Origin: an uncultured Acidobacteriota bacterium
Lineage (GTDB): Bacteria > Acidobacteriota > Thermoanaerobaculia > Multivoradales > DATKCC01
Length of the DNA: 64,000 nt
NCBI GenBank assembly: GCA_963741925.1
Contig: CAVUJU010000005.1
Span: 2,369,447-2,433,446 of the forward strand
Direction of reading: 5' to 3'
The notes beneath the pieces were generated by a model, which was not told where the DNA came from, ran no database searches, and was given only the letters and a program-made list of their open reading frames with translations. The translations under genes were made by a program, and so were the position numbers. Shown here in pieces: positions 2,746-64,000 of this stretch (positions within the stretch are counted from its first letter, which is position 1; the number at the start of each line of letters is the position of its first letter).

Positions 2746-2880
2746 GCCGGGGTCTCGGGCCGGCACCGAGCTCGCCGGGGCAGGGCGAAGCCGAGGCGCT
2801 CGCCGGCGTTTCACCGCCTCCGAGCGGCGCGCGCCGTGCGCAAGGGCGAAAGCCCCCGGCCCGGCGCGGCCCGGCCCGTG

Positions 2881-10131: not shown

Positions 10132-10161
10132 GCTCTGATCGGGTACGACGGGAAACGGTTC

Positions 10162-10494: not shown

Positions 10495-10495
10495 C

Positions 10496-10894
10496 CTAGT
10501 CTCCTGTCGTTGCCTTTCCGCCCTGTTTGGCCCGGCGTCCGCTCCGTTTCGCCCGAGAGGCCGCGGTGCTTCCGGCACCTTCGCCGGCCGTCGCTTCGAG
10601 CGTGGCGAGGCGGCGCTCGAGGAGGAGCACCTGCTCGCGCAGCTCGCGGTTCTCCGAGGAGAGCCTGCGGGCGGCCATCGAGAGGTTCGGGTCGTCGCGC
10701 CACCAGTCGAGCCCGACCTCCTCCGCCTTGTCGATGGAGCAGACGAGGAGCCGGATCCGGATGGTCAACAGCTCCACCTCGGCGAGCGAGACCCGGATGT
10801 CGCCGGCGATCACCAGCCCCTTGTCGAGCACCCGGTCGAGGACGTCGACCAGGCCGCTCGTCTGGCGATAGGTGGGTTGTATCGCTCCAGCCAT
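10496..10894 (-). CDS. gvpJ: GvpA/GvpJ-family gas vesicle protein (second paralogue)
   Basis: [42 protein letters not shown] core plus a charged C-terminal tail. Confidence 0.8.
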
Positions 10895-11148
10895 CTCTCG
10901 GGACCTCGCTCGCCGGCACCATCTGGCTTCGTGTGGCCGGGATTGTGTCAGACATGCCGATCCCCGGGCCACCGATGATCGACGGGGCAGGGCCTGACTC
11001 GGCGAGTTGCTGAGGGCGCTGCACGAATCGTTCCAGCGCCCGGCGCGGCGAAATGCCCGGAATCCGGCCTCCCCACGGGCCTGGAGGCGTTCCGAAGCGG
11101 CGCTCGGACGCCGCCGCCCGGCCGGAAATGGCAGAGCCTTTGTAGGAA
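10895..11148. promoter_or_regulatory. divergent intergenic region; probable promoter for the gvp operon (minus strand) and for the GT39 gene (plus strand)
   Basis: only sizeable non-coding gap upstream of the overlap-coupled gvp gene chain. Confidence 0.35.
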
Positions 11149-12819
11149 TTGCAGGCCACCGGCGGCGCCACGGCGAGCGAGCGGCGGCTGCTAGCATCCG
11201 CTCGCTTCCGCATGCCGCCCTCTCCCGATCGCTCGCCGCCCGCTCCGCGCGACGCCCGGGGCGCCGCCGCCCTGTTCTCGGCCCTCCTGGCCGGGACGCT
11301 CCTGGTCAAGGCGCTGCTCGCCGCCGCCCTGCCCGTGCTGGGCGACGAAGCCTACGTCTTCCTCTGGGGACGCAACCTCTCCCTCGGCTACTACGACCAT
11401 CCGCCGCTCGCCGGCTGGATGGCGCACCTGCTCTTCCTCTTCGGCGACTCCCTGCCGGTGCTGCGCCTGCCTTCGATCCTCCTCTCCGCCGTCATCGCCC
11501 TCGGCATGGTCGCCCTGCTGCGGCCCTACGGCGAGACGGAGGCGTACCTCGGCGCGAGCCTCTTCCTGCTCGCGCCGGTGAACGTCCTGGGGGTGCTCAC
11601 CCTCACCGACACGCCCCTCATCCTCTTCTCGTTCCTCTCGGGCGCCGCCCTGGTCCACGCCCGGCGGCGCGGCGACCATCTCGGGTGGTACGCCCTCTCC
11701 GGGGTCTTCCTCGGGCTCGCGTTCCTCTCGAAGTACCTGGCCGTCCTGCTCGCCCTGGGCTACCTCGCCTGGTTCCTGGCGGCCCTCGCCGGGAGCGCGG
11801 CGCCGCGCCGGCGCCGGCTGGCGGCGGGCGTCGCCCTGCTGGCAGCCGGCAGCCTGCCGTTCGTCGCCTTCAACCTCTGGTGGAACGCCGGCCACTGCTG
11901 GACGAACGTGATCTTCAACCTCTACTCGCGCCACGTCGGCGAGGGGAGGAACTACTCGGTGCCGCGGAACCTGCTCTTCTACCTCGGCACGCACCTCTAC
12001 ATGGCGACCCCGCCGGTGCTCGTCGTGCTCGCCCGCCGCCGCCGCCGGCTCCGGGAGGTCCTCGCCGATCCGGTCCTGCGCCCGGCGGCGTTCCTCTTCG
12101 CCGTTCCCATGGCGGCCTTCCTGGTGCTGGCCCTGACCGCCGTCTTCGGGGCCTACTGGGTCCTCGCCTTCTACCCGTTCTTCTTCCTCCTCGTGCCGCG
12201 GGTGCTCGAACGCCGCGAGCTCGCCACGGCCTGCCGCTTCATGGCGGTCTTCACGGTGCTCCAGCTGGTGGCGGTGGGGGCGGTCCTCGCCCGGCCCCTC
12301 GAGCGCTTGCGCTCCCTCGGCTTCTACGACTCTCTGGTGACCATGGAGGCCCCGGACGAGCTCCTCCGCGACCTCGCCCCCGACCGCGGCGGCGCCCACC
12401 TGGCGGCGCCGGGCTACACCCTGGCGTCGATCCTTTCCTATCGGCTGGGCGAGACGGTGAGCGTGTTCGGCCCCGGCTCGCACTACGCCCGGGAAGACGA
12501 CCTCCTGACCGACTGGCGCACCCTGGACGGGCGAGCGGTGCTGGTGGTCTCGAAGCGGCCCTTCGAGCTCGCCCGCTACCGGCCCTACTTCCGCTCCCTC
12601 GAGCTCGGCGCCTTCGAGCTTCACGGCGCGACGATCCACCTGCTGCGGGGCGAGGGGTTCGACTACCGGGCCTACCGGGCGGGGGTCCTGCGGCCGATCC
12701 TCGAGCGCTACTACCGGCTCCCCGCCTGGCTGCCCACGACCGGCTGCTACTTCTGCGCGAGGTACTTCCCCGGCCCGGACTGCCCGTCCGGCGAGGCCTC
12801 CCGGCGGGCGACGAAGTAG
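11149..12819 (+). CDS. GT39/GT83-family membrane glycosyltransferase (ArnT/PMT-like)
   Basis: DEAYVFLWGRNLSLGYYDHPPLAGWM motif, many transmembrane segments; start may be the internal ATG at 11212. Confidence 0.75.
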   Translation: MQATGGATASERRLLASARFRMPPSPDRSPPAPRDARGAAALFSALLAGTLLVKALLAAALPVLGDEAYVFLWGRNLSLGYYDHPPLAGWMAHLLFLFGDSLPVLRLPSILLSAVIALGMVALLRPYGETEAYLGASLFLLAPVNVLGVLTLTDTPLILFSFLSGAALVHARRRGDHLGWYALSGVFLGLAFLSKYLAVLLALGYLAWFLAALAGSAAPRRRRLAAGVALLAAGSLPFVAFNLWWNAGHCWTNVIFNLYSRHVGEGRNYSVPRNLLFYLGTHLYMATPPVLVVLARRRRRLREVLADPVLRPAAFLFAVPMAAFLVLALTAVFGAYWVLAFYPFFFLLVPRVLERRELATACRFMAVFTVLQLVAVGAVLARPLERLRSLGFYDSLVTMEAPDELLRDLAPDRGGAHLAAPGYTLASILSYRLGETVSVFGPGSHYAREDDLLTDWRTLDGRAVLVVSKRPFELARYRPYFRSLELGAFELHGATIHLLRGEGFDYRAYRAGVLRPILERYYRLPAWLPTTGCYFCARYFPGPDCPSGEASRRATK

Positions 12820-13592
12820 ACCCAGGCCACCTCCACCGGCTGCGCCGGGTCGGCGTGGCGCCGGGCCTCGACCAGGACCTCCTCCCGTTGCACGGCGTCC
12901 GCTCCGGGGGCGATCCGGGCGATCATCGCCGGGATCTCCGCGAGCTCCATCAGCTCGGCCTGGGGGCCACGGTGGACGAAGCGCCGGCGCTCGACGAGGG
13001 TGAAGCCGGCCTCGGCGAGCTGGCGCCCGATCCTGCCGCTCGCGATCCGATGCGGTGCGGGGACCGTCTCCCGGCCGGCGCGGCGCGCCACGGCGCGGGC
13101 GAGGGCGACCTGGTAGGGATGGACCTCCGACGGCTCGCCGGCAAGGCGCTCGGCGGGGACGTTGAACACGAAGAGGCCGCCCTCCTCGACCAGCCCGCCG
13201 AGGGCGGCGAGCACCGGCGGCCGGGCCGGGAACTGCCAGAAGGCGGCGTTCGAGACCGCCCGGTCGAAGGGCCCCGCCGCCACCCGTTCGACCCGCGCCG
13301 CGGGGGCGACGGCGAAACGGGCGCGGGGGTCTTGCACGCGCTCGCGGGCCACCGCCACCATCGCCGCCGAGCCGTCCACGCCCACGAGCTCGGCGTCGGC
13401 CGGCAGCAGCGCCAGGCAGGCCAGGGCGGTGGCTCCTGCGCCGCACGCCAGGTCGAGGACGCGGTGGGCGCCGGCGAGCTCGGCGAGCTCGGCGAGGTAC
13501 CGGTTGAGCGCCGGGTAGATCGAACGCTCGCGGGAGAAGCTGTCGTAGATCTCGGCGTTGGCGCGGTCGGACCAGGGGGAGTCCCAGGGCAT
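12747..13592 (-). CDS. class I SAM-dependent methyltransferase
   Basis: VLDLACGAGATA motif I. Confidence 0.75.
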   Translation of the reverse strand: MPWDSPWSDRANAEIYDSFSRERSIYPALNRYLAELAELAGAHRVLDLACGAGATALACLALLPADAELVGVDGSAAMVAVARERVQDPRARFAVAPAARVERVAAGPFDRAVSNAAFWQFPARPPVLAALGGLVEEGGLFVFNVPAERLAGEPSEVHPYQVALARAVARRAGRETVPAPHRIASGRIGRQLAEAGFTLVERRRFVHRGPQAELMELAEIPAMIARIAPGADAVQREEVLVEARRHADPAQPVEVAWVYFVARREASPDGQSGPGKYLAQK

Positions 13593-13666
13593 GGGGACAG
13601 TCTCTCATCCGCCGGCCGCGCGGGCGTGGTCTCTGTCACGTACCGGCTTCAGCCCGCACCAACGGG

Positions 13667-14947
13667 TTGAGTGAGCCTCTTGCCCGGGAGCTCCCCGAGA
13701 TGAATCCGATGCCGCGCACGGCGCCGTCCCTCTCGCCTGCCGACGAGGCCGAGAGCCTCGAGACCCCGGCGTTCACCTTCGCCCGCTCCGCCCGCGCCCT
13801 CGAGCGCTCGGGGCTGCGCCAGATCATGGCCGAGGCGGTCCGCCCGGGTGTGCGCTCCTTCGCCATCGGCATGCCGGGCACCGACCTGCTGCCCGCCGCC
13901 GAGCTCCGGGCGGCGGCGGCCGAGGCCCTCGCCGCGGACCCCCGCTCCCTCCAGTACGGAGAGCCGTACGCCCCCCTCAAGCGCCGGGTGGTGGAGCTCA
14001 TGGCCTGGCGCGGCGCGCCGTGCACCGAGGAGCAGGTCTTCCTGACCGCCGGAGCGCAGCAGGGCATGGACCTCGTCGCCCGCCTGCTCCTCGACCCCGG
14101 CGACCCGGTGGTCCTCGAAGAGACGATCTACGACGGCATCCAGCTCGCCCTGGCGAGCCGCGCGCCGGAGGTGGTGCCGGTGCCCACCGCGGCGGGCTCC
14201 GGCGCCGACCTCGACGCGCTGGAGGCGCTCCTCGCGGGCGGCCTGCGCCCCCGCTTCTTCTACACCGTCCCGGTGGGCCACAACCCCCTCGGCTCGACCC
14301 TCTCGGCGCCCGCCCGGCGGCGCCTGGTGACGCTCGCCCGGCGCTACCGGATGCCGGTGGTCGAAGACGACGTCTACGGCTTCCTGAGCTACGGCGACCC
14401 GGCGCCGCCGCTGCGCGCACTCGATCCGGAGTGGGTCGTCTACCTGGGCTCGTTCTCGAAGATCGTGGCGCCGGGCCTGCGCGCCGGCTGGATGGTGGCG
14501 CCCGCCGAGCTGGTCCCCCGCCTGTCGATGGTCAAGCACGCGGGCGACGTCGACACCTGCACCTTCAGCCAGCGCGTCCTGTGCGCCTTCCTCGACCGCG
14601 GCCTGATGGCCGGTCACCTGGCCCGGCTGCGGAGCACCTACCGGGAGCGCCGCGACGCGATGCTCGGGGCGCTCGATCGCTGGTTCCCGGCCGAGGCGCG
14701 CTGGCACCCGCCGGACAGCGGCCTCTTCGTCTGGGTGGAGCTGCCCCGGCGGGTGGATACGCGGAGCCTGCTGCGTAGCGCCGTCGACGAGGCCCGGGTG
14801 GCCTTCTGCCCCGGCGACGCCTTCGCCCTCGGCGCCGCGCGCCACGGGGCCCACTGCATGCGCCTGAGCTTCGCGGACGCGACGCCCGGCGAGATCGACG
14901 AGGGGATGGAGCGCCTCGGCCGGGTGGTGGCGGCCGCCTGCCGCTGA
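13667..14947 (+). CDS. PLP-dependent aminotransferase (2-aminoadipate/MocR-type aminotransferase domain)
   Basis: fold-type I aminotransferase pattern, SFSKIVAPGLRAGW (PLP-binding lysine). Confidence 0.8.
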   Translation: MSEPLARELPEMNPMPRTAPSLSPADEAESLETPAFTFARSARALERSGLRQIMAEAVRPGVRSFAIGMPGTDLLPAAELRAAAAEALAADPRSLQYGEPYAPLKRRVVELMAWRGAPCTEEQVFLTAGAQQGMDLVARLLLDPGDPVVLEETIYDGIQLALASRAPEVVPVPTAAGSGADLDALEALLAGGLRPRFFYTVPVGHNPLGSTLSAPARRRLVTLARRYRMPVVEDDVYGFLSYGDPAPPLRALDPEWVVYLGSFSKIVAPGLRAGWMVAPAELVPRLSMVKHAGDVDTCTFSQRVLCAFLDRGLMAGHLARLRSTYRERRDAMLGALDRWFPAEARWHPPDSGLFVWVELPRRVDTRSLLRSAVDEARVAFCPGDAFALGAARHGAHCMRLSFADATPGEIDEGMERLGRVVAAACR

Positions 14948-17709: not shown

Positions 17710-18138
17710 ATGAGCGAGACCGAAGACCTGAAGCGCCGCGTCGAGGGGGGCGACGGCATCTCGGTGCTGCGCGCCAGCGAGACCTTCCGCGGCTGGAACG
17801 GCATCCGCTACAAGGCGGGGCTGTCGGCGAAGAACGTCGGCGCCCGCCAGCTCTCGATGAACGTCGCCACCATCCCGCCCGGGGGCGTGGCCCACGCCCA
17901 CGTCCACGTCGGCTTCGAGGTGATGCTCTACATCCTCGAGGGGCGGGTGCGCCACGAGTACGGCGAGGGCCTGGCGCAGAGCGTCGAGAACCGGGCCGGC
18001 GACTTCCTCTTCATCGAGCCCGGCGTCCCCCACGAGGTGTTCAACCTGAGCGACTCCGAGCCGGTGGTGGCGGTGGTCGCCCGCTCCGACGCCAGCGAGT
18101 GGGAGAACATCGAGCCCTACGAGCGCCCGGCCGGATAG
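17710..18138 (+). CDS. cupin-domain protein
   Basis: HAHVHVGFEV...GD..FIEPGVPHEV cupin motifs. Confidence 0.7.
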   Translation: MSETEDLKRRVEGGDGISVLRASETFRGWNGIRYKAGLSAKNVGARQLSMNVATIPPGGVAHAHVHVGFEVMLYILEGRVRHEYGEGLAQSVENRAGDFLFIEPGVPHEVFNLSDSEPVVAVVARSDASEWENIEPYERPAG

Positions 18139-46097: not shown

Positions 46098-46207
46098 CTC
46101 CTCCTGGGTGGGGCTCGGGGAACCGGTAGTTTTCCAAGAATCTTCCTGTTAAACTACAGAGTGTCGAAACCGGCGCCGGTTACACGAAGAGCGAAGGAGG
46201 GGACGAG

Positions 46208-46942
46208 ATGATCGCGAGCCTGGCCGAAGGACGGGAGGAGGTTGCGGGTGGGAAGGGGCTTTCGCCGCAGTCGGCGGGCGTCGCCGATCCGGAGGTGGTC
46301 GCCCGCGTCCTGGCCGGCGAGACCGCCCTGTTCGAGGTCGTCATGCGGCGCTACAACCGGCGGCTGTTCCGGGTGGTCTGGTCGATCCTGCTCGACGAAG
46401 GGGAGGCCGAGGACGTGGTCCAGGACGCCTACGTGCGTGCCTACCAGCACCTGAACCAGTTCGACGGCCGCGCGCCCTTCGCCACCTGGCTGACCAAGAT
46501 CGCGGTCTACGAGGCGAGCGCGCGGCGCAAGCGGCGGCGGCGCCAAGTGCCTCTCGAAGCCCTGGCGCCGCCCGAGAAGGAGGCGTTGATGGCGGAGTCG
46601 GCGAAGGCGCCGGCGAGCGGCGAGGACCGGATGCTCACCCGCGACCTGCGGAACCTGCTCGAGCGCGCGGTGGCGGCCTTGCCCTCGCCGTACCGCCAGG
46701 TGTTCGTGCTGCGCGAGGTCGAGGAGCTGTCGACCGAGGAGACCGCCCAGGTCCTGGGCGTCAGCCGCACGGCGGCCAAGGTCCGCCTGTTCCGGGCCAA
46801 GAGGCTCCTCCGAGGTGAGGTCGAGAGGCTCCTGGGCGCCGGCGCCCGCCAGCTCCTCGCCTTCGCCGGCGAGCGCTGCGACCGGACCGTCGCCCGCGTC
46901 CTCGCCCGTCTCGCGAAGCTCCGCCTCGAACCGACGAGCTGA
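46208..46942 (+). CDS. ECF sigma factor with ~60-aa C-terminal extension
   Basis: sigma-70 regions 2 (VQDAYVRAY) and 4 (LSTEETAQVLGVS..TAKVRL). Confidence 0.8.
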   Translation: MIASLAEGREEVAGGKGLSPQSAGVADPEVVARVLAGETALFEVVMRRYNRRLFRVVWSILLDEGEAEDVVQDAYVRAYQHLNQFDGRAPFATWLTKIAVYEASARRKRRRRQVPLEALAPPEKEALMAESAKAPASGEDRMLTRDLRNLLERAVAALPSPYRQVFVLREVEELSTEETAQVLGVSRTAAKVRLFRAKRLLRGEVERLLGAGARQLLAFAGERCDRTVARVLARLAKLRLEPTS

Positions 46943-50368: not shown

Positions 50369-51676
50369 TCAGCGGGCTCCGGCCCGGCGATCCTGGTCGA
50401 GCCGGGCGATCGCGGCTTCGAGGAGATCCCGCGTGAGGGCGTCGCGCCGGGCCGCCGCCTCCAGGAGCTCGAGCGACGCGCGAGTCTCGCGCTCGACCTG
50501 CTGCTCGGCGAAGACCTGCACGGCCTCCATCGCCAGCCGTCTCGCCTCGGCCGTTCGGCCCCGGGCCAGGTGAACGAGGGCGAGCTCCAGGCCCACGAGC
50601 CCCGCGTCCCAGGCGATCCCGCGCTCCAAGGCCCGCCCCCGGGCCTCGCTGAACAGCCGCTGGGCGGCGTCGAGGTCAGCTCGGCTCCAGGCGATCCGGG
50701 CCCTCAGCCAGACGAGCAGGTTGGCCAGTTGATCGCTGGCGCCCTGGATCAGGTCTTCGTGAGCCGCGAGCTCGGCCTCGGCCCGGTCGGTCTGGCCGTC
50801 CACGTGGAGGTGGAACGCCAGGTCGTAGTGAGCGTAACCGAGGAGCCAGGACTCTGAGCCAGCATCGAGGAGGCCGAGGGCTTCCTCCGTCACGGCCACG
50901 GCGGCGCTGGACTCGTGACGTGCATAGTAGATCGCCCCGAGCGTCAGGAGGACCCTGGCCTCACTCTCCCGATCGTGGAGAAGGCTATACAGCGCCGCCG
51001 CTCGGCGCAGATGCTGAGTCGCCTCCTCGAAGCGGCCCTGGTCCTTGCGGAGCGAGCCAAGGAAGCTGTAGACCTCGGCCGGAGTCTCCAGGTCCGTCAC
51101 GCCCGACGAGTCGAGGAGCCGCTGAGCCTCTTCGAGATCCGCCTCGCCGTCGAGAAGGCGGCCCAGGGCTCGCCGGGCGTTGCCCCGGACGGCCAGGCTC
51201 GGGGCCTGGATCTCGGGGTCCGGCTTGTAGACCGCGGTCTTCTCGTTCGCCGCCAGGGCGGCGTCGGCCAGGGACTCGGCCTCGGCCGGGTGGCCCGGAA
51301 TCCTCCGCCGGGCGGCCTCCAGGAGCATCAGGCAGAAGAAGGGGCCCTTGAAGCGCACGTAGGCCCTGGAGACCTTGCTGCGGCGCTCCTCTGGTGGCAG
51401 CTTCACCACGTCCTTGACCCACTGGCGGGCCGTGTCCTCGTGGGCCTTGAGTTTCACCTCGGAGAGGTCCAGGCGCTCGCGCAGCCGCTCCAGGCGGTCT
51501 GGCGGCTCCTCGCGGCTCAGCAAGCCCGGCTGGCGCAACCGCGCCTCGTGGGTCGAGAACCTCGCCTCGCACACCTGGCACAGGGCGATGGTGTGCTCCC
51601 TCTCGATCTCGTCGAGAAGCTCCTGGGGCGCCTCGCCCCGGGCCACGGCGTCCAGCAGCTCCAGCGGAACATGCAT
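50369..51676 (-). CDS. TPR-repeat protein with N-terminal CxxC zinc-finger-like motif (possible anti-sigma/regulatory)
   Basis: ALCQVCEARF; multiple TPR-like helices. Confidence 0.55.
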   Translation of the reverse strand: MHVPLELLDAVARGEAPQELLDEIEREHTIALCQVCEARFSTHEARLRQPGLLSREEPPDRLERLRERLDLSEVKLKAHEDTARQWVKDVVKLPPEERRSKVSRAYVRFKGPFFCLMLLEAARRRIPGHPAEAESLADAALAANEKTAVYKPDPEIQAPSLAVRGNARRALGRLLDGEADLEEAQRLLDSSGVTDLETPAEVYSFLGSLRKDQGRFEEATQHLRRAAALYSLLHDRESEARVLLTLGAIYYARHESSAAVAVTEEALGLLDAGSESWLLGYAHYDLAFHLHVDGQTDRAEAELAAHEDLIQGASDQLANLLVWLRARIAWSRADLDAAQRLFSEARGRALERGIAWDAGLVGLELALVHLARGRTAEARRLAMEAVQVFAEQQVERETRASLELLEAAARRDALTRDLLEAAIARLDQDRRAGAR

Positions 51677-51815
51677 GTGCTCCTCCTAGAAAGTACAGGT
51701 GTTCAGCGCTTGCGACTCTATCTCGCCCGGTGCTCCGCTGCAAGAATATGAGACTCGGAGAAGGAGAACCGCCGGCGCCGGTGGGGGAGTGTCGCCGGCG
51801 CCGGCGCTCCAACCG

Positions 51816-53409: not shown

Positions 53410-53580
53410 GCGCATGGTCCGGATGTCCGCACTACGGATCGCGACACGAGGTCTCGTCGCGGCCCTACGTACACTTCGCGTATACTGCTCAGTGGCATCT
53501 TCGGTACCTTGGGATGATGCGCCGGCCGGGCAGCTCTCCGCTTCCCGGCGCCGGCGGCAGCTTCGAGAGGAGGCCGAAAC

Positions 53581-56500
53581 GTGGCGAATCGAGATGCGGC
53601 GAAGCTCCGTCGCTGTTGGCTCTTCACACTCGCGCCGGTCCCGGTTCGCCCGGTCGCGGCGATTCTGGCCTCGACGCTCCTGGCCTCGACGCTCCTGGCC
53701 TCGACGCTCCTGGTGCCGGCCGCCTCCGGGCAGGCGATTCCTGGAAAGGCGTGTGGCCCCGAGGTGGCAGAGGGGACCACGTTCCACTTCGAGGAGGAGA
53801 CGAGCGCTCAGCTCCCTGCTGGTGTCTGCTTCGTCACCGCGTTCCACTGCGACCAGCCCGAGGAGGATGGAGGGCCGACCTACCAGCTGCTCGACGCCGG
53901 GTGCGACCCGACGGCCGGACCGTGCCGGGTCCAGGTTCGCGTGCCGCTGAAGTTCCCGGGCAACCAGGACAACATCCACGACGGCCCCCTCCACGTCGAG
54001 GAGGTGCGCTGGTACGTCCTGTCGGCGGCCCCGTCGTGCGAGGACTCGGTCCAGTGCGGCCAGGTCTCCACCTGTGGCAAGGAGGGCACCGGCACGGCGA
54101 CCATCAACACCGAGCGCGCGGTGTTCACCGCCACCCGCAGCTTGTCCTGCGCCGACGTCCAGCACACCGACCAGCCGCTGTCGCTCACCGCCTGGGCGTG
54201 CGTCACCACCTCGGGCTGCAAGCAGCGGCTCGACATCAACGGTCTCGACCTCGACGGGCCGGACGTGGCCGCACAGATCGGCTGCCCGGACCCGCCGAAG
54301 CAGAACTGCGGCGCGGGCGACGCGTCGAGCTGCCAGGTGTGCACGCCGGCCGGGGTCGGCCCGGGCTTCGGCCTTCCCGGGTACGGCGGGCCGGGGGACG
54401 GGGCGACCGGCCCGAACGCGACGTTGCGATATTCGTCAAAGGGCGCAGGCCACCCTGGCTACCCCGGCACGCCCTCTAGGAACGTCGCGTTGGGCCGCTA
54501 CTGGAGCCACGACTACGCCGAGCGGATCGTCGCCGTCGGGAGCCCGAACCCGGAGGATCACGTCTGGATGATCACGAAGTACGGGACCTTCCGCGAGTGG
54601 AGCGCTCCGGACGCGGGCACGGGCGTCTACGCGACCGTCTCGCCGTCCGACGAGTACCGCACCCTCACCTGGACCGGCTCGGGCTGGACCTTGACCGACC
54701 TCGACGGGACGGTCGAGGAGTTCGATGCCGCGGGGCTCTGGCGCTCGACCACCGACCGCAATCTCAACCAGAAGATCGCGACCTACACGGCGGGCCAGCT
54801 CACCTCGGTCGCCCTGCCGGACGGCCGCCGGGAGGACTTCACCTACTACCCGGCGGGCGATCCCGCCGAGGGCAAGCTCGCGTCGATCACCGAGTACGGC
54901 ACGGACGGCGTCACCCACTTGCCCGCGTGGGACTACAGGTGGACCGGCGACGACCTGACCGAGATCGACCGCCCCGACGGGACGGCGCTCCTCTTCGAGT
55001 ACGACGGGACGACCGGGTACCTTGCCAAAGTCAGGCTCCGCGAGAGGAACGGCACCGCGACCCGGGTGCTCCGGGCCTGGTCGTACACCCCGGACGGTAA
55101 GGTCTCCGAGACCTGGAAGGGCGGCGACACCCCGGCCGCAGGCACCGAGGACTGGAAGCTCTCCTACGACAGCTCGACCCAGACGACGGTGACCGATCCG
55201 CTGGGCAAGCCCATCGTCTACACCTACGAGCTCGACCCGGCGAGCCCGAACGTCCGGGTGACGCAGATCTCGGGAGATTGCCCCGTCTGCGGCCTCGCCC
55301 CGAACGTCCAGCTCGGCTACAGCGATCCCGCGAACCCTCTCCGCCCCACGGCCACCACCGACGGCCGCGGCATCACCACGGCGATGAGTTACGACACCCA
55401 CGGCCAGGTGACCTCCCGGACCGAGGCCATGGGCGAGCCCGAGGCCCGGACCACCGAGTGGGCCTACGACCCGGCGTTCCCGGCCCTCGCGACCTCGATG
55501 GACCAGCCCTCGGTCGCCGGCGGGGCCTCGCTGCGGACAACCGACTGGACCCGCGACGGCTCCGGCAACCCGACGGACCGGACGATCTCGGGCTCCGAAG
55601 CCGGCTCGGCCTTCACCTTGACGACGGCGAGCAGCTTCAACGCCGCCGGCCTCCCCCTGACGATCGACCCGCCCGGCTACACGACCACCGACCAGACGAG
55701 CTTCACCTACGACGCGACCGGCCTGATTCCCATGACCCGGACCGACCCGCTCGTCGGCACGACCACCTTCGGCCACGACGCCTTCAACCGCCGGACCTCG
55801 GTGACCGACCCGAACGGCCTCGAGACCACCACGGCCTACGACGAGCTCGACCGGGTGACCGAGGTCCGCCAGCTCGGGCCCGCGACGCCCACCGACGACC
55901 TGGTGACCGCCTACGAGTACACGAGCTTCGGGGATCTCTTCCGGACCACCCTGCCCGCCGGCAACGTCGTCGAGTACGCCTACGACCCCGCCGGCCGGTT
56001 GACCTCCGTCGAGCGGCGGCCCGACGCCACCACCCACGGCGAGCGGGTCGTCTACACCCTGGACGCCGCCGGCAACCGGACCCGGGAGGAGCGCCAGCGG
56101 TGGGACGCCGGGAGCTCCACCTGGGTGCCCGTCTCGGCCACCGCCTACGACTACCAGAACCGCTGCCAGGTCGACCAGGTCCGCCAGGGCGCGGACCAGC
56201 CCGAGGAGGCGACGACCGCCTTCGAATACGACTGCGACGGCAACCTGACCTCCGTCTGGGACCCTGACCACGACCGGGCGACCGACCCGCCGACCACCAC
56301 CTATGGCTACGACCTCTTGAACCGCCTGACGAGCGTCTCTCAAGCCTGGCAGCCTCCCGGCGGGACCCCGGGCACGGCCGTCACCACGTACTCCTATGAC
56401 GTCCAGGACCACCTGACAGGCGTCACCGACGCCGAGGGGAACCCGACCACCTACGTCGACTCGGACCGGGACCTCCTGACCCAGGAGGACTCCCTCGTCT

Positions 56501-58701
56501 CGGGGACGACGACCCATCGCTACAACGAGCACGGCGAGGAGGACCGCTCGACCGACGCCCGGGGGATCGTCGTCGCCCGCACGATCGACGCGCTCGACCG
56601 GGTGACGAACGTCGACTACCCCGACGACACCCTGGACACGACCTACCTCTACGACACGGCGCCCGGCTCCTGCGCCGCTCCGGGCTCGCCCGTCGGCCGC
56701 CTGGCCTCCATCACCCGGAACGGCGAGACGCTCGACTTCTGCCACGACCACTTCGGGCGGATGGTGAAGGACGGCGAGCTCGGCTACACCTGGGACGCCA
56801 ACGGCAACCGCACCGGGATCGTCTATCCTGGAGGGGTGAGCGCGGCCTACGGCTTCGACTTCGCCGACCGGGAGACGAGCCTCTCGGTGACGACCCCCGC
56901 GGGGGGCGTCACGCCCACCGGCGTCGTCACGGCCGCCGCCTACCTGCCCTCGGGACCGCTCTCGAGCCTCGCCCTCGGCAACGCCACCACCGAGACCCGG
57001 GCCTTCGACGGCCGCTACGTCCCCTCCGGGATCACCCTCTCGGGCCTGGCCGGAGGCGTCCCCGGCCACACCTGGACGTATGCCACCGACCGGGTGGGCA
57101 ACGTCACCGAGATCGTCGAGACCCCGGAGTGCTCCGGCGGTGGCTCGACCCTCGTCCTCGAGAACCAGACCGTCACGACGGATGAGACCTTCACCTCCTG
57201 CGCCGACCTCCAGGCGGGAAACGGCTTCACCGTCCAGAGCCCCGGGAACGTGACCTTCCAGGCGCAGGGCAAGGTCGTCCTCACCAGCGGCTTCTCGGTG
57301 GGCAACGGCGCCTCCTTCGCCGCCGGCTCCGGGTCGCTGCCAACCTTCTCCGATCGGACCTTCAGCTACCAAGCGCCGCAATACTTCCTCACCTCCGCCG
57401 CCCTCACCCGGGCCGCCGGCTCCTGGGGCACCCGCGACTGGTCGTACGACAAGATCGGCAATCGCCTCAGCGAGAGCCGGGACAGCGGAGCCAGCTCCGA
57501 CGGCTACGTCTACACGACGAACGCCGCCTCCGGCGATACCCCCGTCCTCGACCTCGTGAACCTCACCGTCAGCGGCACCCGCGACTACACCTGGGACGCC
57601 GCCGGCAACCTCGACTCCGTGGCCCCCGGCGGGAACCTCGTCGACTTCACCTTCGACGACGCGAGCCGCTTGTCTGCCGCCGGCCACCCGGCCTCGGGAG
57701 CGAGCGCCGCCTTCCTCTACGACGGCCGAGGCTTCCTCCGGAGCGCCACTCAGACCGCCGGCGGCACCGCCTCCGTCACCCCCCTCTACGACTCCGCCGG
57801 CCTCCTCCACGCCCTCCGCCGCCAGCCCAGCCCCACGGACCCGCTCGACACGACCTACGTCTTCTACCTCGCCGACCGCCCCGTCGCCCAGCTCCAAATC
57901 GACGGCACCGGCACCGAGACCTGGACCTACCTGACCACCGACCACCTCGGCACTCCCCTCATCGCCACCGACCAGAGCGGCGCGATCACCTGGGAAGGCG
58001 GCTTCGAACCCTTCGGTACCGACTACCAGGCGGGGATGACGGGGGTGGGGGCCTCGGAGAACGGGATCGACCTGAGGCTCCCCGGCCAGTGGGTCGACGA
58101 CACCTGGGCCGATGCCACCTCCGGAGCTGGGATCCACTACAACGTCTGGCGGTTCCTCGAAACACAGACTGGACGCTATACCCGGCCCGATCCCAAGCGA
58201 CTCCGGAGCGGAGAGTCGAACCTCTATCTCTACGCTCGGAACAACCCGCTGCTCAGCAGCGACCCCCTCGGGCTCTACACAGTCCTCGGTCCAGGCGCTC
58301 ACAGGGTGCGGGAGGCTTTCGATCTCCTCCGTCCGCTCGTCCTTCCCGGGAACAAGCAGCGCGACCCATGCGATCCGTGCCAGAAGATCTTCCGGAAGCT
58401 CGGGCTGGACCCTCGAATGCTCGACGAGAACGGTGCCGCCCCCATCATCTACACCGCTGCAGCTCCTCTCGATCCATCCCAAGCCTACGGCACCTACAAG
58501 TGCTCCGATTGGATCTGGATCGATCGCCGGCTCACCGAGGGCTCCGACCCGAAAAGACTCCGGTGCCTGGCTGCGAAACTCGCTCATGAGCTCGCCCACT
58601 TCCTGGCGGGTCATTGCCTTACAGAGGGGCCGGAAGGGCAAGGTGCTGAGAAGGCTTGCTTCGGGCGTCTCGTCGAAGGGACCAGCGAATGCGGGTTCTA
58701 G
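53581..58701 (+). CDS. rhs: Sec-secreted Rhs/YD-repeat polymorphic toxin whose C-terminal tip carries an HExxH motif
   Basis: signal peptide; Cys-rich N-domain; dozens of YD repeats; RHS core ending GIHYNVWRFLETQTGRYTRPDP...DPLGL; C-terminal tip with HELAHF. Confidence 0.9.
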   Translation: MANRDAAKLRRCWLFTLAPVPVRPVAAILASTLLASTLLASTLLVPAASGQAIPGKACGPEVAEGTTFHFEEETSAQLPAGVCFVTAFHCDQPEEDGGPTYQLLDAGCDPTAGPCRVQVRVPLKFPGNQDNIHDGPLHVEEVRWYVLSAAPSCEDSVQCGQVSTCGKEGTGTATINTERAVFTATRSLSCADVQHTDQPLSLTAWACVTTSGCKQRLDINGLDLDGPDVAAQIGCPDPPKQNCGAGDASSCQVCTPAGVGPGFGLPGYGGPGDGATGPNATLRYSSKGAGHPGYPGTPSRNVALGRYWSHDYAERIVAVGSPNPEDHVWMITKYGTFREWSAPDAGTGVYATVSPSDEYRTLTWTGSGWTLTDLDGTVEEFDAAGLWRSTTDRNLNQKIATYTAGQLTSVALPDGRREDFTYYPAGDPAEGKLASITEYGTDGVTHLPAWDYRWTGDDLTEIDRPDGTALLFEYDGTTGYLAKVRLRERNGTATRVLRAWSYTPDGKVSETWKGGDTPAAGTEDWKLSYDSSTQTTVTDPLGKPIVYTYELDPASPNVRVTQISGDCPVCGLAPNVQLGYSDPANPLRPTATTDGRGITTAMSYDTHGQVTSRTEAMGEPEARTTEWAYDPAFPALATSMDQPSVAGGASLRTTDWTRDGSGNPTDRTISGSEAGSAFTLTTASSFNAAGLPLTIDPPGYTTTDQTSFTYDATGLIPMTRTDPLVGTTTFGHDAFNRRTSVTDPNGLETTTAYDELDRVTEVRQLGPATPTDDLVTAYEYTSFGDLFRTTLPAGNVVEYAYDPAGRLTSVERRPDATTHGERVVYTLDAAGNRTREERQRWDAGSSTWVPVSATAYDYQNRCQVDQVRQGADQPEEATTAFEYDCDGNLTSVWDPDHDRATDPPTTTYGYDLLNRLTSVSQAWQPPGGTPGTAVTTYSYDVQDHLTGVTDAEGNPTTYVDSDRDLLTQEDSLVSGTTTHRYNEHGEEDRSTDARGIVVARTIDALDRVTNVDYPDDTLDTTYLYDTAPGSCAAPGSPVGRLASITRNGETLDFCHDHFGRMVKDGELGYTWDANGNRTGIVYPGGVSAAYGFDFADRETSLSVTTPAGGVTPTGVVTAAAYLPSGPLSSLALGNATTETRAFDGRYVPSGITLSGLAGGVPGHTWTYATDRVGNVTEIVETPECSGGGSTLVLENQTVTTDETFTSCADLQAGNGFTVQSPGNVTFQAQGKVVLTSGFSVGNGASFAAGSGSLPTFSDRTFSYQAPQYFLTSAALTRAAGSWGTRDWSYDKIGNRLSESRDSGASSDGYVYTTNAASGDTPVLDLVNLTVSGTRDYTWDAAGNLDSVAPGGNLVDFTFDDASRLSAAGHPASGASAAFLYDGRGFLRSATQTAGGTASVTPLYDSAGLLHALRRQPSPTDPLDTTYVFYLADRPVAQLQIDGTGTETWTYLTTDHLGTPLIATDQSGAITWEGGFEPFGTDYQAGMTGVGASENGIDLRLPGQWVDDTWADATSGAGIHYNVWRFLETQTGRYTRPDPKRLRSGESNLYLYARNNPLLSSDPLGLYTVLGPGAHRVREAFDLLRPLVLPGNKQRDPCDPCQKIFRKLGLDPRMLDENGAAPIIYTAAAPLDPSQAYGTYKCSDWIWIDRRLTEGSDPKRLRCLAAKLAHELAHFLAGHCLTEGPEGQGAEKACFGRLVEGTSECGF

Positions 58702-59648
58702 TCCTTTTGGCGTGCGTCTTGCTGCCCACCCGGCCGGCTTGCGCCGAAGACACCCAGAGCCTACGGCTCGAGCTCATCCTCCCCTCGACAACGGTGCCCC
58801 TCGGCGAGCCCTTCATCATCCGAGCCGTCCTGCTCAACGAGTCAACCGCCCCGGTGCGGGTCGCCCCTGTCTTCTTCCTCTCGCATGACAACCTCGAGTT
58901 GCAGCTAACCGATGCCGAAGGCGACAGCGTTGATGCGCCGAGCGGTGCGATCGAGGTCTGTGGCCGCGTGAACCGCGACTGGCTGATTCTTCTCGGCGCC
59001 CGCGAGCTCATCGGCGCGGACTTCAAGATCTCTCCCACACTCCCCGATAGCCTGAATTACATCTACGGGCTGCGGGCGGGCTGCTACACCTTCTCTGCCA
59101 TATTCCATCTCCACGACTTCGCGGACTGCCTCAATGCCCAGGCTGTACCCACTCCAGCGCCGGTACACGGTCCTGTCGCCTCCGAGCCGCAGAAGCTTTG
59201 CTTCGGCCCCCCCCTGCCAGAGCGGGTCACGGAGTTCCGAAACAAGCTCAGCTCGGGTCAATTGGACCAAGTCATCGAAGGACTCCTCTATTTCTCCAAC
59301 GTCGCTGATCCACGGGCAAGTGCCGAGATCCGCTCGCTCCTTGGTGCCGCCGAAGGCTGGCAATCTCGCTTCGTGGACCAGTTCCACGCCCTGACAGCCT
59401 TGCGCCGTCAGCGAGACCCCGCCAATGCACCCTACTTTCGAGAGGCGCTGCATGGTCGCTTCTCCGCACTCGCCGCCAAGGCTCTCCAGGAGGTCCGGGT
59501 TTCTCCCTCCACTTCCGCCAATCCGAACCGCTACCGTGACCGGGGCACGGAGCCCAACGCCAGTAGGAATTCATGCAGCTACGACTACCATGCAGGATTT
59601 CGGAGCGCTCTTGGACCTACCTCTGCGCCGATCACCTGGAGGCGCTAG
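58689..59648 (+). CDS. secreted candidate immunity protein for the Rhs toxin tip
   Basis: ATG lies inside the rhs stop region; signal peptide; paralogue of 63104-63895. Confidence 0.55.
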   Translation: MRVLVLLACVLLPTRPACAEDTQSLRLELILPSTTVPLGEPFIIRAVLLNESTAPVRVAPVFFLSHDNLELQLTDAEGDSVDAPSGAIEVCGRVNRDWLILLGARELIGADFKISPTLPDSLNYIYGLRAGCYTFSAIFHLHDFADCLNAQAVPTPAPVHGPVASEPQKLCFGPPLPERVTEFRNKLSSGQLDQVIEGLLYFSNVADPRASAEIRSLLGAAEGWQSRFVDQFHALTALRRQRDPANAPYFREALHGRFSALAAKALQEVRVSPSTSANPNRYRDRGTEPNASRNSCSYDYHAGFRSALGPTSAPITWRR

Positions 59649-59666
59649 CCGTGGCCGCCAACCGGG

Positions 59667-60401
59667 ATGGCGGCATCACCTGGCAAGGGTAGCTTCGAAC
59701 CCTTCGGCACCGACTACCAGGCCGGCACCGGCAACGGAGCGAGCGACAATGGCATCTCCCTCCGCCTCCCCGGCCAGTGGGAAGACGGCACCTGGGCCGA
59801 CGCGACCTCCGGAGCCGGGATCTACCAGAACACCTGGCGGTTCCTCGAAACGCAGACTGGACGTTATACCCGGCCCGATCCCTTGGGGCTTGACGGTGGC
59901 ATCAACCCCTACCGCTACGCCTTCTCGAATCCCCTTCGCCTTTCCGATCCAACCGGCCGGCATGTGACATGGGTCGACCCTCAGCTTGACCACCTTTTCA
60001 ACTGCGCTATCAAAGGCTCTTCCGAGTTCCGCCATCGTTATCTCGACTGGTTCATCAGGGATTCTCACGACTGGGAGATTCACGTTCACCCTCATCCGGT
60101 GGGTGACCCAGCGCCTCTCCCGGGCTACTGTTCTGGCTCAAGCTGCTGGGTTCGTCCCGGACCTTTCCACGCCGGTCAAGTTTTCATCATTCCTACCGGT
60201 GACTGCCTCACGGATACCAAGTCCCTGATGCACGAGCTCCTGGAGATCTTTGCGAATCGGGCGCTCGGCCTCTCGACAAGCGCTCTGGACGCCGTTGCAG
60301 TCAACGATCCCAACGATCCGTACCAGTCGCCGGCTCACCACTACGCGAAGGCGCACGACAGTGACCTCGCCAAGGAGATTTGCTGCCGGTGCCAACCATA
60401 A
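59667..60401 (+). CDS. orphan Rhs C-terminal fragment (core end + alternative toxin tip)
   Basis: FEPFGTDYQAG...TWRFLETQTGRYTRPDPLGLDG, then an unrelated tip (..MHELLEIF..). Confidence 0.6.
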   Translation: MAASPGKGSFEPFGTDYQAGTGNGASDNGISLRLPGQWEDGTWADATSGAGIYQNTWRFLETQTGRYTRPDPLGLDGGINPYRYAFSNPLRLSDPTGRHVTWVDPQLDHLFNCAIKGSSEFRHRYLDWFIRDSHDWEIHVHPHPVGDPAPLPGYCSGSSCWVRPGPFHAGQVFIIPTGDCLTDTKSLMHELLEIFANRALGLSTSALDAVAVNDPNDPYQSPAHHYAKAHDSDLAKEICCRCQP

Positions 60402-61234
60402 TCGGTAGTAGCTCTGGTCTTTCTTGGGCCTGGCTACTAGAGTTCACGTACTTGTTACCGGCTTCGCTGGCGGCCATGGTGGTCGTCGTCTCTTGTGGAC
60501 TAGCCATCACTCGCAAAGAGCCCTTCTCGGGCTCCGATTATCCGATCTTCGTCAGAGATCTAGCCGTCCTGCTGCCACCTGTCGTAGCCGCACAGACCTT
60601 CCTGGCCTCACTCGATAGATCTACCAGCCTAGACCCGTCGGGCCCCCAGGAGATTCTGCTGGCAAAAGCTTTCCTGGCCGCTGCAGTGACGGCCTACGTC
60701 TCTTGTCTCCTGCTCGCGTTCGCCTATCTTCTCGCCAGGCGGCTCGCCGCCTCCGCGGTGCTTGGAGCGACAAGAAGACGTTCGCTTCTGTCTCTCGGTG
60801 GGATCGTGTTAATCCCGACTGGCACCGCCGCCTTTCAGTTCGAGTGCTTCGGCGTCAAGCTCTTCCCTGGCGACGCCTTTGTCTCACGACAACTCGGCTA
60901 CCCGACGACCCTATTGCGGGTGTCGATCTCGCTCTCGGACGTTCTCGTAGCGGCCCTTCTCCTCGGCTCCGCACTCGTAGCTTTCGCCCTTTGGGGCCTC
61001 GTCTCTCACGGTTCTCGCCCGGCGCTAATCGCCCGTCCTACGACGTACGCTTTCGCGGCTATAGGGGCCCTAGCTGCTCTCGACGTTTACTCCTCCTTTT
61101 TCGCTCACTTCGACTCAGCCCACCCTACTCGTCTTGCTCCTGCTCTCGCGCTTCTATCGACTGTGATTCTAGTTACAGCTTATTATCTGCTCGTGGTTCG
61201 AGTACTGGTGCAGGCTCGCGCTCAGACAAAGTGA
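60380..61234 (+). CDS. multi-pass membrane protein, candidate immunity for orphan tip 1
   Basis: 7-8 TM helices; lower GC than surrounding DNA. Confidence 0.55.
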   Translation: MLPVPTIIGSSSGLSWAWLLEFTYLLPASLAAMVVVVSCGLAITRKEPFSGSDYPIFVRDLAVLLPPVVAAQTFLASLDRSTSLDPSGPQEILLAKAFLAAAVTAYVSCLLLAFAYLLARRLAASAVLGATRRRSLLSLGGIVLIPTGTAAFQFECFGVKLFPGDAFVSRQLGYPTTLLRVSISLSDVLVAALLLGSALVAFALWGLVSHGSRPALIARPTTYAFAAIGALAALDVYSSFFAHFDSAHPTRLAPALALLSTVILVTAYYLLVVRVLVQARAQTK

Positions 61235-61259
61235 AGCCAACGGCCACGGGGCACAGATA

Positions 61260-63116
61260 CGCCAGGTTTCAAGGTGACGTGACCGCCACCTACGGCCTCG
61301 ACTACGCCGACCGGGAGGTAAGCCTCTCGGTCAACACCCCGGCAGGCGGGATGACGCCCCACTCCGTCGTCTCCGGCGCCGCCTACCTGCCCTCGGGACC
61401 GCTTTCGAGCCTGGTCTTCGGCAACGGTGCCACCGAGGACCGCGCCTTCGATCAACGCTACTCCCCCTCTGGCATCACCTTCTCCGGCCTCGCCGCCGGA
61501 GTGCCCGGCCACACCTGGACCTACACCGTCTCGATCCGGTGGGCAACGTGACCGAGATCTTGGAGACCCCGGAGTGCACCGGCGGCGGCTCGGGGCTGGT
61601 CCTCGAGAACCAGACTGTCACGGCGGACAAGACCTTCACCTCCTGCGCGGATCTCCAAGCGGGCAACAACTTCGCCGTCGAGAGCCCCGGGAACGTGACC
61701 TTCCAGGCGCAGGGCAAGGTCGTCCTGACCAGCGGCTTCTCGGTGGGCTCCGGAGCCTCCTTCGCCGCCGGCTCCGGGTCGCTGCCAACCTTCTCCGATC
61801 GGACCTTCAGCTACCAAGCGCCGCAATACTTCCTCACCTCCGCCGCCCTCACCCGGGCCGCCGGCTCCTGGGGCACCCGCGACTGGTCGTACGACAAGAT
61901 CGGCAATCGCCTCAGCGAGAGCCGGGACAGCGGAGCCAGCTCCGACGGCTACGTCTACACGACGAACGCCGCCTCCGGCGACACCCCCGTCCTCGACCTC
62001 GTGAACCTCGCCGTCAGCGGAACCCGCGACTACACCTGGGACGCCGCCGGCAACCTCGACTCCGTGGCCCCCGGCGGGAACCTCGTCGACTTCACCTTCG
62101 ACGACGCGAGCCGCTTGTCTGCCGCCGATCACCCGGCCTCGGGAGCGAGCGCCGCATTCCTCGACGACGGCCGAGGCTTCCTCCGCAGCGCCACCCAGAC
62201 CGCCGGCGGCACCGCCTCCGTCACCCCGCTCTACGACTCCTCCGGCCTCCTCCACGCCCTCCGCCGAAAGCCCAGCCCCACGGACCCGCTCGACACGACC
62301 TACGTCTTCTACCTCGTCGGCCGCCCCGTCGCCCAGCTCCAAATCGACGGCACCGGCACCGAGACGTGGACCTACTTGACGACCGATCACCTGGGAACGC
62401 CGCTCGTTGCCACGAACCAGACCGCGGCCATCACTTGGGAAGGCGGGTTCCGCCCGTTCGGCACCGACTACCAGGCCGGGCTCCCCACTGGCGCTAGCGA
62501 GAACGGGATCGACCTCCGGTTGCCTGGAGAGTGGGACGACACCGCCTGGACCGATGCGACGTCGGGCGCGAGCGTTCACTACAACGTCTGGCGGTGGCTC
62601 GAGCCAGAGACGGGGCGATACACTCGACCCGATCCACTTAGATCTCAGAGACGGGGAACGGATTACCTCTATGCTCAAGACAATCCGATACTCAACACAG
62701 ATGCCACTGGTCGTTATCGAGTCATAGGCGGCGGAGCAGAAAATGTCCACCAGGCATTCCAGGACTTATTGCAGCGGATTCACACAAATTGCGATTGCTA
62801 CCAATTCTTCCATGATCTGGGCCTAGTCCCTTCAATGCTCGACCCTAATGGCGCGCCTCCTTACATCGCCACAGGAGGCTCCCCCCTCTCCCGCAACCAA
62901 ACGCTCTACGGCGCTTATAACTGCCGCACCGACTATATCTTTATCGACGCAAGGCTAGTCCAGGATTCACGTCACCGGCGATGCCTGGAGGCCAAGCTCG
63001 CCCATGAAGTGGCGCACTTTCTTGCACGCTCCTGCGAAGAAGGGCCCGAAGGCACGGGAGCCGAGAAGGCCTGTCTGGGGCGTGTCTACGAGGGCAAAGA
63101 CGATTGCGGATTCTAA
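61260..63116 (+). pseudogene. orphan Rhs 3' fragment (~620 codons homologous to 56820-58701) with an internal frame break ~61540; intact tip with HEVAHF
   Basis: near-identical stretches to the main rhs (SFSYQAPQYFLTSAALTRAAGSWGTRDWSYDKIGNRLSESRDSG...); 2-nt indel relative to the main copy. Confidence 0.7.
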
Positions 63117-63895
63117 CTCTCGCCCTCCTGCTGCTCCAACTCGGTTCCGCCAAGTCAGTCGACCTACGCTTGGTTCTTGCCGGCCCCAAGGAAGCGGTTC
63201 CACTCGGCGAGCCGTTCGCTTACCAAGTCACGCTTGTGAACAAGACTGGGGCTCGAGTGCGAGTAGTCCCGATCTTCTTTCACTCCGAGGATTACTTGGA
63301 CCTCCGACTAAAGAGCTCCACGAACCCATTACCCGAAGTCGCCCAGTTTGCAGCTGATTTCGAAAGCGGTCTCAACCGTGAAGACTTCGTCCTTCTAGGA
63401 GACCGCAACTTTATCGGACAGGAGTTCTTCGTGAGGCCCGAAAATCCCTTCGAATACATCTATGGCCTTCGGGAGGGAACTTACTCGGCGCAAGCCGTTC
63501 TGCACCTTCACTCGTTTTCGAGCAAATTTCAGTGGGATGACCTTCCGGCGGTCGAAGCGACCTTGAGCTCCAACGAAATCACCCTAACCTTCGGCCCACC
63601 CCGACCGACTACCATCGACTACCGCAAGCGAGAACTGAAGTTACACGATGAAACGAAGCAAAGTCAGGCTCTGGCATATTTTTCTAGTGTTCGCGCACCC
63701 GGAGTTGCAGCTGCCGTTCGCGAGATTCTTGGTCAACCTGCCGACTGGCTAAACCGTTTCCACGACCCAGCGGGCGCCCTCCTCGCCCTCCGCCGAAACT
63801 CGGAGGCCGCAAATTTTCCCTATATCAACGCCGCACTGACGTCGAGGTTTCGCGATCTGGCCCGGGAGGCACTCAAGGCGACACCGCCTCGCTAG
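63104..63895 (+). CDS. secreted candidate immunity protein 2 (paralogue of 58689-59648)
   Basis: signal peptide; shared ...PLGEPF...V.VVP.FF.S.D.L.L.L... pattern. Confidence 0.55.
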   Translation: MRILTLALLLLQLGSAKSVDLRLVLAGPKEAVPLGEPFAYQVTLVNKTGARVRVVPIFFHSEDYLDLRLKSSTNPLPEVAQFAADFESGLNREDFVLLGDRNFIGQEFFVRPENPFEYIYGLREGTYSAQAVLHLHSFSSKFQWDDLPAVEATLSSNEITLTFGPPRPTTIDYRKRELKLHDETKQSQALAYFSSVRAPGVAAAVREILGQPADWLNRFHDPAGALLALRRNSEAANFPYINAALTSRFRDLAREALKATPPR

Positions 63896-64000
63896 GACAG
63901 ACGGCTTCCTCCTACGGAGCCGACCAGCGAAGCACCTGGCACCTCCAGGGCGCGGCCTCGAGGAGAACTCCAGCTACGACTCGACGATCGGCAAGCTCGT

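Follow-up and report, generated by a model that had tools for sequence, protein, structure and literature searches.

An Acidobacteriota rhs locus with a signal peptide, a predicted zincin-like toxin tip and a candidate periplasmic immunity partner

The 64,000-nucleotide stretch of DNA analysed here (the window; contig CAVUJU010000005.1 of an uncultured Acidobacteriota bacterium) carries near its 3′ end an rhs gene, an overlapping gene for a candidate immunity protein and two orphan cassettes, each with an rhs fragment, a C-terminal (CT) tip and a further immunity candidate (Table 1). A reading made from the sequence alone (the sequence-only reading) had described a 1706-residue Rhs protein with a signal peptide, a Cys-rich N-terminal domain, a YD-repeat shell and a core ending in DPLGL, and our searches recovered every one of these parts where it had placed them. 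It was right about the HELAHF motif and the cysteines of the tip but too generous with the length, which is 141 residues and not ~150; it also ended the system at 59648, whereas further cassettes extend it to 63895 or beyond. The orphan array and the mosaic structure of the gene went unmentioned in it.

Table 1. Features of the rhs locus in window coordinates (a slash marks a predicted cleavage site).
Feature	Position	Strand	Basis or remark
Shine-Dalgarno sequence GGAGG	53569-53573	+	7 nt 5′ of the rhs GTG; read off the sequence
Main rhs open reading frame (ORF), 1706 aa	53581-58701	+	GTG start codon
Predicted Sec signal peptide of Rhs, aa 1-50, VPAASG/QAIPG	53581-53730	+	Hydrophobicity and sequence
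Cys-rich N-terminal domain of Rhs, aa ~51-290	53731-54450	+	Without family assignment; strongly divergent among orthologues
YD/RHS-repeat shell, aa ~290-1495	54451-58065	+	Pfam, NCBIfam and PDB Rhs matches
RHS-associated core, aa 1496-1565, RPDPKRL...NPLLSSDPLGL	58066-58275	+	Rhs_assc_core TIGR03696, E 2.1e-10
C-terminal toxin tip, aa 1566-1706, 141 aa and stop, zincin-like, 7 Cys	58276-58701	+	
HELAH motif, aa 1669-1673 (tip residues 104-108)	58585-58599	+	Alignment; predicted helix 92-111
Glu1690 (tip E125), candidate third zinc ligand, HExxH-x16-E	58648-58650	+	Alignment; predicted helix 119-129
Immunity candidate 1, 319 aa, signal peptide MRVLVLLACVLLPTRPACA/ED	58689-59648	+	ATG start; overlaps the rhs stop by 13 nt
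Orphan cassette 1, Rhs core fragment and unrelated tip	59667-60401	+	TIGR03696, E 7e-14; alignment A4
Immunity candidate 2, integral membrane protein, ~5-6 hydrophobic helices	60380-61234	+	Hydropathy; start codon uncertain
Orphan cassette 2, rhs 3′ fragment and tip of the main family	61279-63116 (start approximate)	+	
Immunity candidate 3 (imm3), 263 aa, signal peptide	63104-63895	+	13-nt overlap with the orphan-2 tip gene

The protein has the make-up of an Rhs/YD-repeat toxin: a YD/RHS shell, a core whose DPxGL end lies just before the tip, and a tip with an immunity gene downstream. The shell matches Pfam RHS_repeat (PF05593; E 9.4e-33 over five stretches), the RHS family, and NCBIfam YD_repeat (TIGR01643; E 3.3e-20). 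The solved Rhs cocoons (8qja, 7q97, 8cp6 (Tse5) and 8h8a/b) also align to it, and their alignments stop at residue 1564/1565, at the junction of DPLGL with the tyrosine that opens the tip. By analogy, DPLGL(1565) before Y1566 is presumed to be the site of autoproteolytic tip release; differing tips are found behind the same Rhs core. The cysteines of the shell are paired (862/885, 1031/1054 and 1184/1207, each 23 residues apart, and 567/570), a pattern consistent with the disulfide-stapled loops of an extracytoplasmic protein. We note that a sub-threshold NCBIfam match to GCX_COOH, the ‘3-coathanger stack domain’, lies beside Cys1184 and Cys1207 (57229-57324, Rhs residues 1217-1248; 20.4 bits for a cut-off of 26), and that another occurs in orphan cassette 2 (61674-61769; 21.6 bits, same cut-off); this stretch may be a module inserted in the Rhs cocoon.

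A single HExxH within 1706 residues is not a rare chance occurrence (a few per cent, by rough estimate). In an alignment of 11 tips with identities down to 46% (A2), however, H104, E105 and H108 of the motif are invariant (tip numbering), and so are A124, E125, Cys32, Cys35, Cys97, Cys128 and Cys139. The two other cysteines, Cys76 and Cys114, are jointly lost in two members (P0007 and P0008), as is expected of a disulfide pair. All members of the family stand directly after an Rhs core ending DPLGLY. The family is very rare: when 1.84 billion cluster representatives were searched exhaustively with HMMER, 6 true 50%-identity clusters emerged, a word-indexed search of 5.8 billion proteins gave 4 relatives at 75-80% identity, and word-indexed searches with the tip and with its profile returned 4-5 proteins only, with no sequence bridging to Tox-MPTase3. 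Against PDB sequences, the tip alone and the tip profile gave noise only. The AlphaFold2 model built on the 11-sequence alignment has a predicted local distance difference test score (pLDDT) of 82.6 and a predicted template modelling score of 0.84, the pLDDT having been raised from 38 on a shallower six-sequence alignment by the five divergent tips from the exhaustive search. The model places HExxH on an α-helix and has an overall likeness to solved zincins; its best 30 fold matches are nearly all zincin-fold (HExxH) metallohydrolases, mostly peptidases. Gluzincins of the M1 and thermolysin types carry HExxH-x18/19-E, and the x16 spacing of the tip is close to it; together with the predicted helices, this spacing makes a zinc-ligand role for E125 plausible by analogy.

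The closest named family is Tox-MPTase3 (PF15639). One member of the tip family, P0009, matches the C-terminal half of that profile with 22.6 bits (E 1.2e-4) and a second with 11.7 bits; the tip of the window and most others of the family have no match, and no member reaches the Pfam gathering threshold of 25 bits. Of the Tox-MPTase3 signature (K, HExxH, F[DE]), the tips have a near-invariant K101, the invariant HExxH, and a near-invariant F129 that is followed mostly by G and by D in two only. Several members also give weak M48 or SprT-like matches around the motif. Three independent lines, namely conservation, predicted fold and sub-threshold profile similarity, support the metallopeptidase-like fold that the sequence-only reading had tentatively suggested from HExxH. 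The alignment and the model together support the tip as a minimal zincin (gluzincin-like) domain with predicted peptidase activity.

The sequence-only reading expected the gene that follows to encode an overlapping, secreted immunity partner of ~320 residues. The predicted product has 319 residues and a signal peptide, and in all 10 loci examined a tip is followed by the gene or a homologue of it, the 13-nt overlap being the same throughout. The loci covered are the second copy in the window (63104 versus 63116), L001-L003, L004, L005, L008, L009, L010 and the divergent L011 and L012; in the last two, tip identity is 43-55% and partner identity 33-38%. All homologues start with a signal-peptide-like sequence, and candidates 1 and 3 of the window are 38% identical (E 3e-50). 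The immunity family, too, is rare (12 clusters in 5.8 billion proteins), and its profile has no relative in Pfam or the PDB. Between the TTG at 58656 (330 residues, the start in the ORF list) and the ATG at 58689, which follows a GAAGGGA sequence, we chose the ATG, given the conserved 13-nt overlap. We also considered a lipoprotein (LLAC, residues 6-9) and rejected it: too few residues come before the LLAC, whose Cys other family members lack. Strict adjacency, co-divergence and translational coupling with the tip argue for a cognate role, and by genomic inference we take the product of 58689-59648 to be the cognate periplasmic immunity protein. Since the tip cysteines are conserved and co-vary, and every cognate partner carries an export signal, toxin and immunity protein would meet, and the target would thus probably lie, in the periplasm or envelope.

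The same evidence bears on what the tip might do. It could be zincin-like and act on something other than an envelope protein, cleaving peptidoglycan stem peptides or cross-links, working as a YbeY-like nuclease, or performing HExxH oxygenase chemistry. We consider this unlikely, since true peptidases both lead the fold matches and make up most of them; a nuclease would be expected to have a cytoplasmic immunity protein, yet all partners carry signal peptides, and the searches showed no resemblance to known families of peptidoglycan hydrolases.

The N-terminus of Rhs has a basic n-region and then a 24-residue hydrophobic stretch with the end PAASG/QA; the signal peptide was called by eye and from hydropathy. 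Three orthologous Rhs proteins from two Acidobacteriota metagenome-assembled genomes (MAGs; loci L005 and L006) have canonical signal peptides, with the ends ARA/A or AQG/A, in line with the Sec-type export proposed in the sequence-only reading. The hydrophobic core of the signal peptide is encoded in part by a perfect 15-nt tandem repeat (CTGGCCTCGACGCTC, 3.3 copies at 53665-53713, found with TRF), which gives (ASTLL)3 and is a possible length-variable element. The Cys-rich domain that follows (15 Cys within residues 45-300) has no match in Pfam or the PDB.

Whether a type VI secretion system (T6SS) could deliver the protein was judged from the N-terminus and the neighbours. Domain searches found no T6SS, PAAR, VgrG or Hcp domain in the ~30 coding-like ORFs of 1-53 kb, in keeping with the sequence-only reading, and none in the flanks of L005 and L006; nor did Pfam and NCBIfam reveal PAAR, VgrG, DUF4150 or another T6SS adaptor domain in the Rhs N-terminus. 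The locus thus has neither the N-terminal PAAR/VgrG-binding domain nor the adjacent vgrG, PAAR, EagR or T6SS genes by which a T6SS-delivered Rhs effector is recognised. Delivery might still depend on a T6SS, or on some other dedicated system, whose genes stand elsewhere, the N-terminal hydrophobic region of the protein being no cleaved Sec signal; an rhs gene may be distant from any T6SS cluster, and just 64 kb of the contig is in view. The lack of any adaptor domain in the N-terminus or the neighbours, alike in the window, L005 and L006, the AxA-type signal peptides of the orthologues and the many paired cysteines all speak against this, and it is the least probable of the explanations that we weighed.

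Past 59648, two orphan rhs-CT/immunity cassettes occupy 59667-61234 and ~61279-63895, shortly before the window ends at 64000. The core fragment of the first is 72% identical to residues 1472-1567 of the main Rhs. Its tip (59958-60398) contains Cys and has the pattern HE(L/M)(L/I)E...H...HD (HELLE in the window copy), and with its copies at L005 19010-19444 and L006 15760-16192 it shares an invariant H189-E190-x-x-E193, H224, H230-D231 and C-terminal Cys residues. The tip has no Pfam match; we examined it as a distant relative of the main tip and abandoned the idea, as hhalign gave a probability of only 2.7% against the main tip family. From these sequences it is predicted to define a second uncatalogued toxin family. 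A multi-pass membrane protein is encoded 3′ of the tip both in the window and at the identical copy within L005 16050-17800 (the two immunity proteins are 99.6% identical).

The second cassette repeats the last ~1.3 kb of rhs (80-91% DNA identity to 56836-58182) and ends in a tip with HEVAHF that is 58% identical to the main tip. Its reading frame is broken near 61523-61535 (repeat families D3 and D2 are out of step by 2 nt), with the 5′ part in the frame of the ORF 60703-61551; tblastn matches to L005 change frame at about the same place (~17798-17810), and the shared frame switch suggests an old, silent cassette. The imm3 protein is 100% identical to a database protein, P0017. We note that neither tip-bearing protein of the window came back from the search of 5.8 billion proteins, although this identical copy of imm3 is among those proteins; the source annotation may have left the rhs genes of the window uncalled or treated them as pseudogenes.

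The nearest loci come from uncultured Acidobacteriota MAGs. L005 is collinear with 54642-62587 of the window at 88% DNA identity, and the identity between the two Rhs proteins climbs along their length: it is 18-29% for the N-terminal domain, 46-90% for the shell and 97-100% for the tip. The segment with the orphan-1 tip and its membrane immunity protein (window 59750-61500, L005 16050-17800) is 99-100% identical as DNA, with 70-93% in the flanking rhs and immunity sequences, which suggests that one orphan-1 cassette was recently exchanged horizontally or by gene conversion. From the gradient and the near-identical cassette, it follows that rhs is modular at both ends and that cassettes have recently moved between lineages. 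Beyond the point matching the end of the window, L005 has two more orphans and a transposase-like gene, and a metagenome contig (L001) carries a similar mixed cassette array. L006 has two tandem full-length rhs paralogues (1719-6767 and 9641-14866; 62-65% identical to that of the window) with signal peptides and other tips, then orphans, a Transposase_29 gene and a protein with a Peptidase_S74 (endosialidase chaperone) domain. The G+C content of the window is ~72% up to 58 kb and 58-65% from 58 to 64 kb. G+C at third codon positions (GC3), ~0.9 before, is 0.62-0.81 in the stretch with the tips, the immunity genes and the orphans (58000-64000), marking these as compositionally foreign to a 72% G+C host.

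Rhs could be aimed at protists, fungi or animals, in the manner of Tc toxins or as a teneurin-like protein, and the partner would then only shield the envelope of the producer during export; the absence of contact-dependent delivery machinery from the vicinity and the presence of secreted zincin toxins (AsaP1 and anthrax lethal factor) among the weak fold matches would suit such a role. We regard it as very improbable, since orphan tip/immunity arrays and strict co-variation of tip and immunity protein are hallmarks of interbacterial polymorphic toxins (PMC3482391), and domain searches detected no TcB β-propeller, SpvB or TcA partner in the Rhs protein or its neighbour genes.

We suggest that the locus is a T6SS-independent, signal-peptide Rhs polymorphic toxin system with a zincin tip that acts in the periplasm or envelope and a cognate periplasmic immunity protein, and we put the probability of this reading at roughly 0.7. 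The 1706-residue precursor would be exported by Sec. The YD-repeat shell would enclose the tip, and the aspartyl protease of the core would cut after DPLGL(1565), as in solved Rhs and TcC proteins. The tip is modelled as a minimal zincin, with HExxH on one helix and the invariant Glu 16 residues on in the next; it would most likely fold and act in the oxidising periplasm or envelope of the target cell, where zinc-dependent cleavage of an envelope protein or peptide would follow. The producer would be protected by the translationally coupled periplasmic immunity protein, which would inhibit the tip. Periplasmic inhibitors of serralysins offer an analogy, with no relationship claimed. The two promoterless orphan cassettes would add immunity and serve as a stock of tips that recombination within the common 3′ part of rhs could swap in. 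The divergent Cys-rich N-terminal domain is probably for surface display, export or target recognition. In its boldest form, which we offer only tentatively and think rather doubtful, the proposal would be of a bacteriocin-like, Sec-exported Rhs that needs no T6SS, with a swappable, hypervariable Cys-rich N-terminal domain for receptor binding or outer-membrane crossing and a cocoon that delivers a minimal zincin, dependent on disulfides, to the periplasm of rival cells, and with a partner that is a periplasmic protease inhibitor and the first immunity family for a Tox-MPTase-like toxin.

Several points weigh against the system that we propose. No route is accounted for by which a 180-kDa protein would cross the outer membrane of its producer and enter the target, and the long h-region of the N-terminus, where the signal peptide is a call by eye and hydropathy, could instead be a membrane anchor. 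The T6SS search covered the 64-kb window and the flanks of L005 and L006, and T6SS genes could stand elsewhere in the genome. As for the tip, its cysteines are odd in number (7), the window's own copy has no Pfam match, the Foldseek comparison with the PDB is not significant (best E 0.037), the top matches being zincins nonetheless, and the proposed role of E125 comes from spacing and predicted helices.

Chromosomal genes of an ordinary kind surround rhs. No domain match came from the small ORFs at 51.8-53.4 kb, which separate the TPR gene from rhs, and only two of them have a gene-like GC3. An ECF-type (extracytoplasmic function) sigma factor (46130-46942, +) and a TPR protein (50369-51685, −; 37% identical between the window and L005) lie next to or near rhs in the window, as do their counterparts in L005 (8911-9693, −, and 7584-8831, +), possibly as a dedicated regulatory pair. 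Further away, a gas-vesicle gene, GvpL/GvpF (E 5e-76), adjoins a duplicated ArsA-like ATPase (4400-7673, −), a hint that this Acidobacteriota genome may have a gas-vesicle cluster.

In its architecture, the locus resembles those rhs loci of enterobacteria (E. coli, Salmonella, Serratia and Dickeya) that carry orphan CT/immunity cassettes, reportedly the subject of work by Koskiniemi and colleagues in 2013 and 2014: both have a polymorphic tip delimited by DPxGL, an adjacent immunity gene, and then 5′-truncated rhs fragments with alternative pairs and shared 3′ homology. The enterobacterial proteins are T6SS cargo with PAAR/VgrG partners, and their tips are mostly nucleases that act in the cytoplasm, whereas here we find a signal peptide, a Cys-rich N-terminal domain, no nearby T6SS genes and a predicted periplasmic immunity protein. 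Signal-peptide export and a downstream immunity gene are shared with the Sec-dependent Rhs/YD toxins of the WapA type (Bacillus subtilis; Streptococcus suis, reported in PMC12704120), but their producers have a single membrane, the toxin is anchored in the cell wall and the tips are tRNases; here, the producer is presumed to be diderm, the N-terminal domain is unrelated and the tip is zincin-like.

Zhang et al. (2012; PMC3482391) have already catalogued in silico both signal-peptide RHS toxins of the type II secretion system (T2SS)/Sec export class and the small zincin tips Tox-MPTase1-5. The present tip is like these in being a C-terminal HExxH domain of ~130-140 residues after RHS repeats in a protein of that class, and like Tox-MPTase3 in having a Lys just before HExxH. 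It differs from Tox-MPTase3 in its conserved cysteines and invariant AE..CFG helix, and in its sources (Acidobacteriota or soil metagenomes, compared with Alphaproteobacteria and Bacteroidetes in PMC3482391); it also has an evident dedicated immunity family, whereas the Tox-MPTase families are listed there without one. An Rhs effector of Salmonella Dublin, SED_RS06335, is reported, with experimental support, to owe its antibacterial activity to a C-terminal HExxH metallopeptidase domain (PMC13556075); it is delivered by a T6SS (SPI-19) and has an M91/NleD-HopH1 tip with a model like that of botulinum neurotoxin, and we detected no sequence relationship between that tip and ours. Among minimal zincins of solved structure (M35: deuterolysin and peptidyl-Lys metalloendopeptidase; minigluzincins: proabylysin and selecase), identity to the tip is only 9-18%; the third ligand of M35 enzymes is Asp, and these proteins neither serve as polymorphic toxin tips nor come with an immunity protein.

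From sequence comparison, then, the tip and immunity families appear to be new and rare, within a known kind of system and in an under-studied phylum. If our reading is right, one toxin family and one immunity family would be added to the polymorphic-toxin catalogue; the overall picture would be unchanged, and specialists would not be surprised. In Proteobacteria, Rhs toxins have been studied in depth as the cargo of T6SSs; signal-peptide Rhs proteins of diderm soil phyla are known from comparative genomics only, and neither the substrate nor the immunity mechanism is known for any small Tox-MPTase-like zincin tip. The locus offers a compact pair, a 141-residue tip and a 319-residue secreted partner, with a second allele pair in the same array (58% and 38% identical), and the pair would be a clean entry to the substrates of zincin tips, to the mechanism of immunity and to T6SS-independent Rhs delivery in diderms. 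It also illustrates modular exchange at both ends of rhs in abundant, poorly studied soil bacteria.

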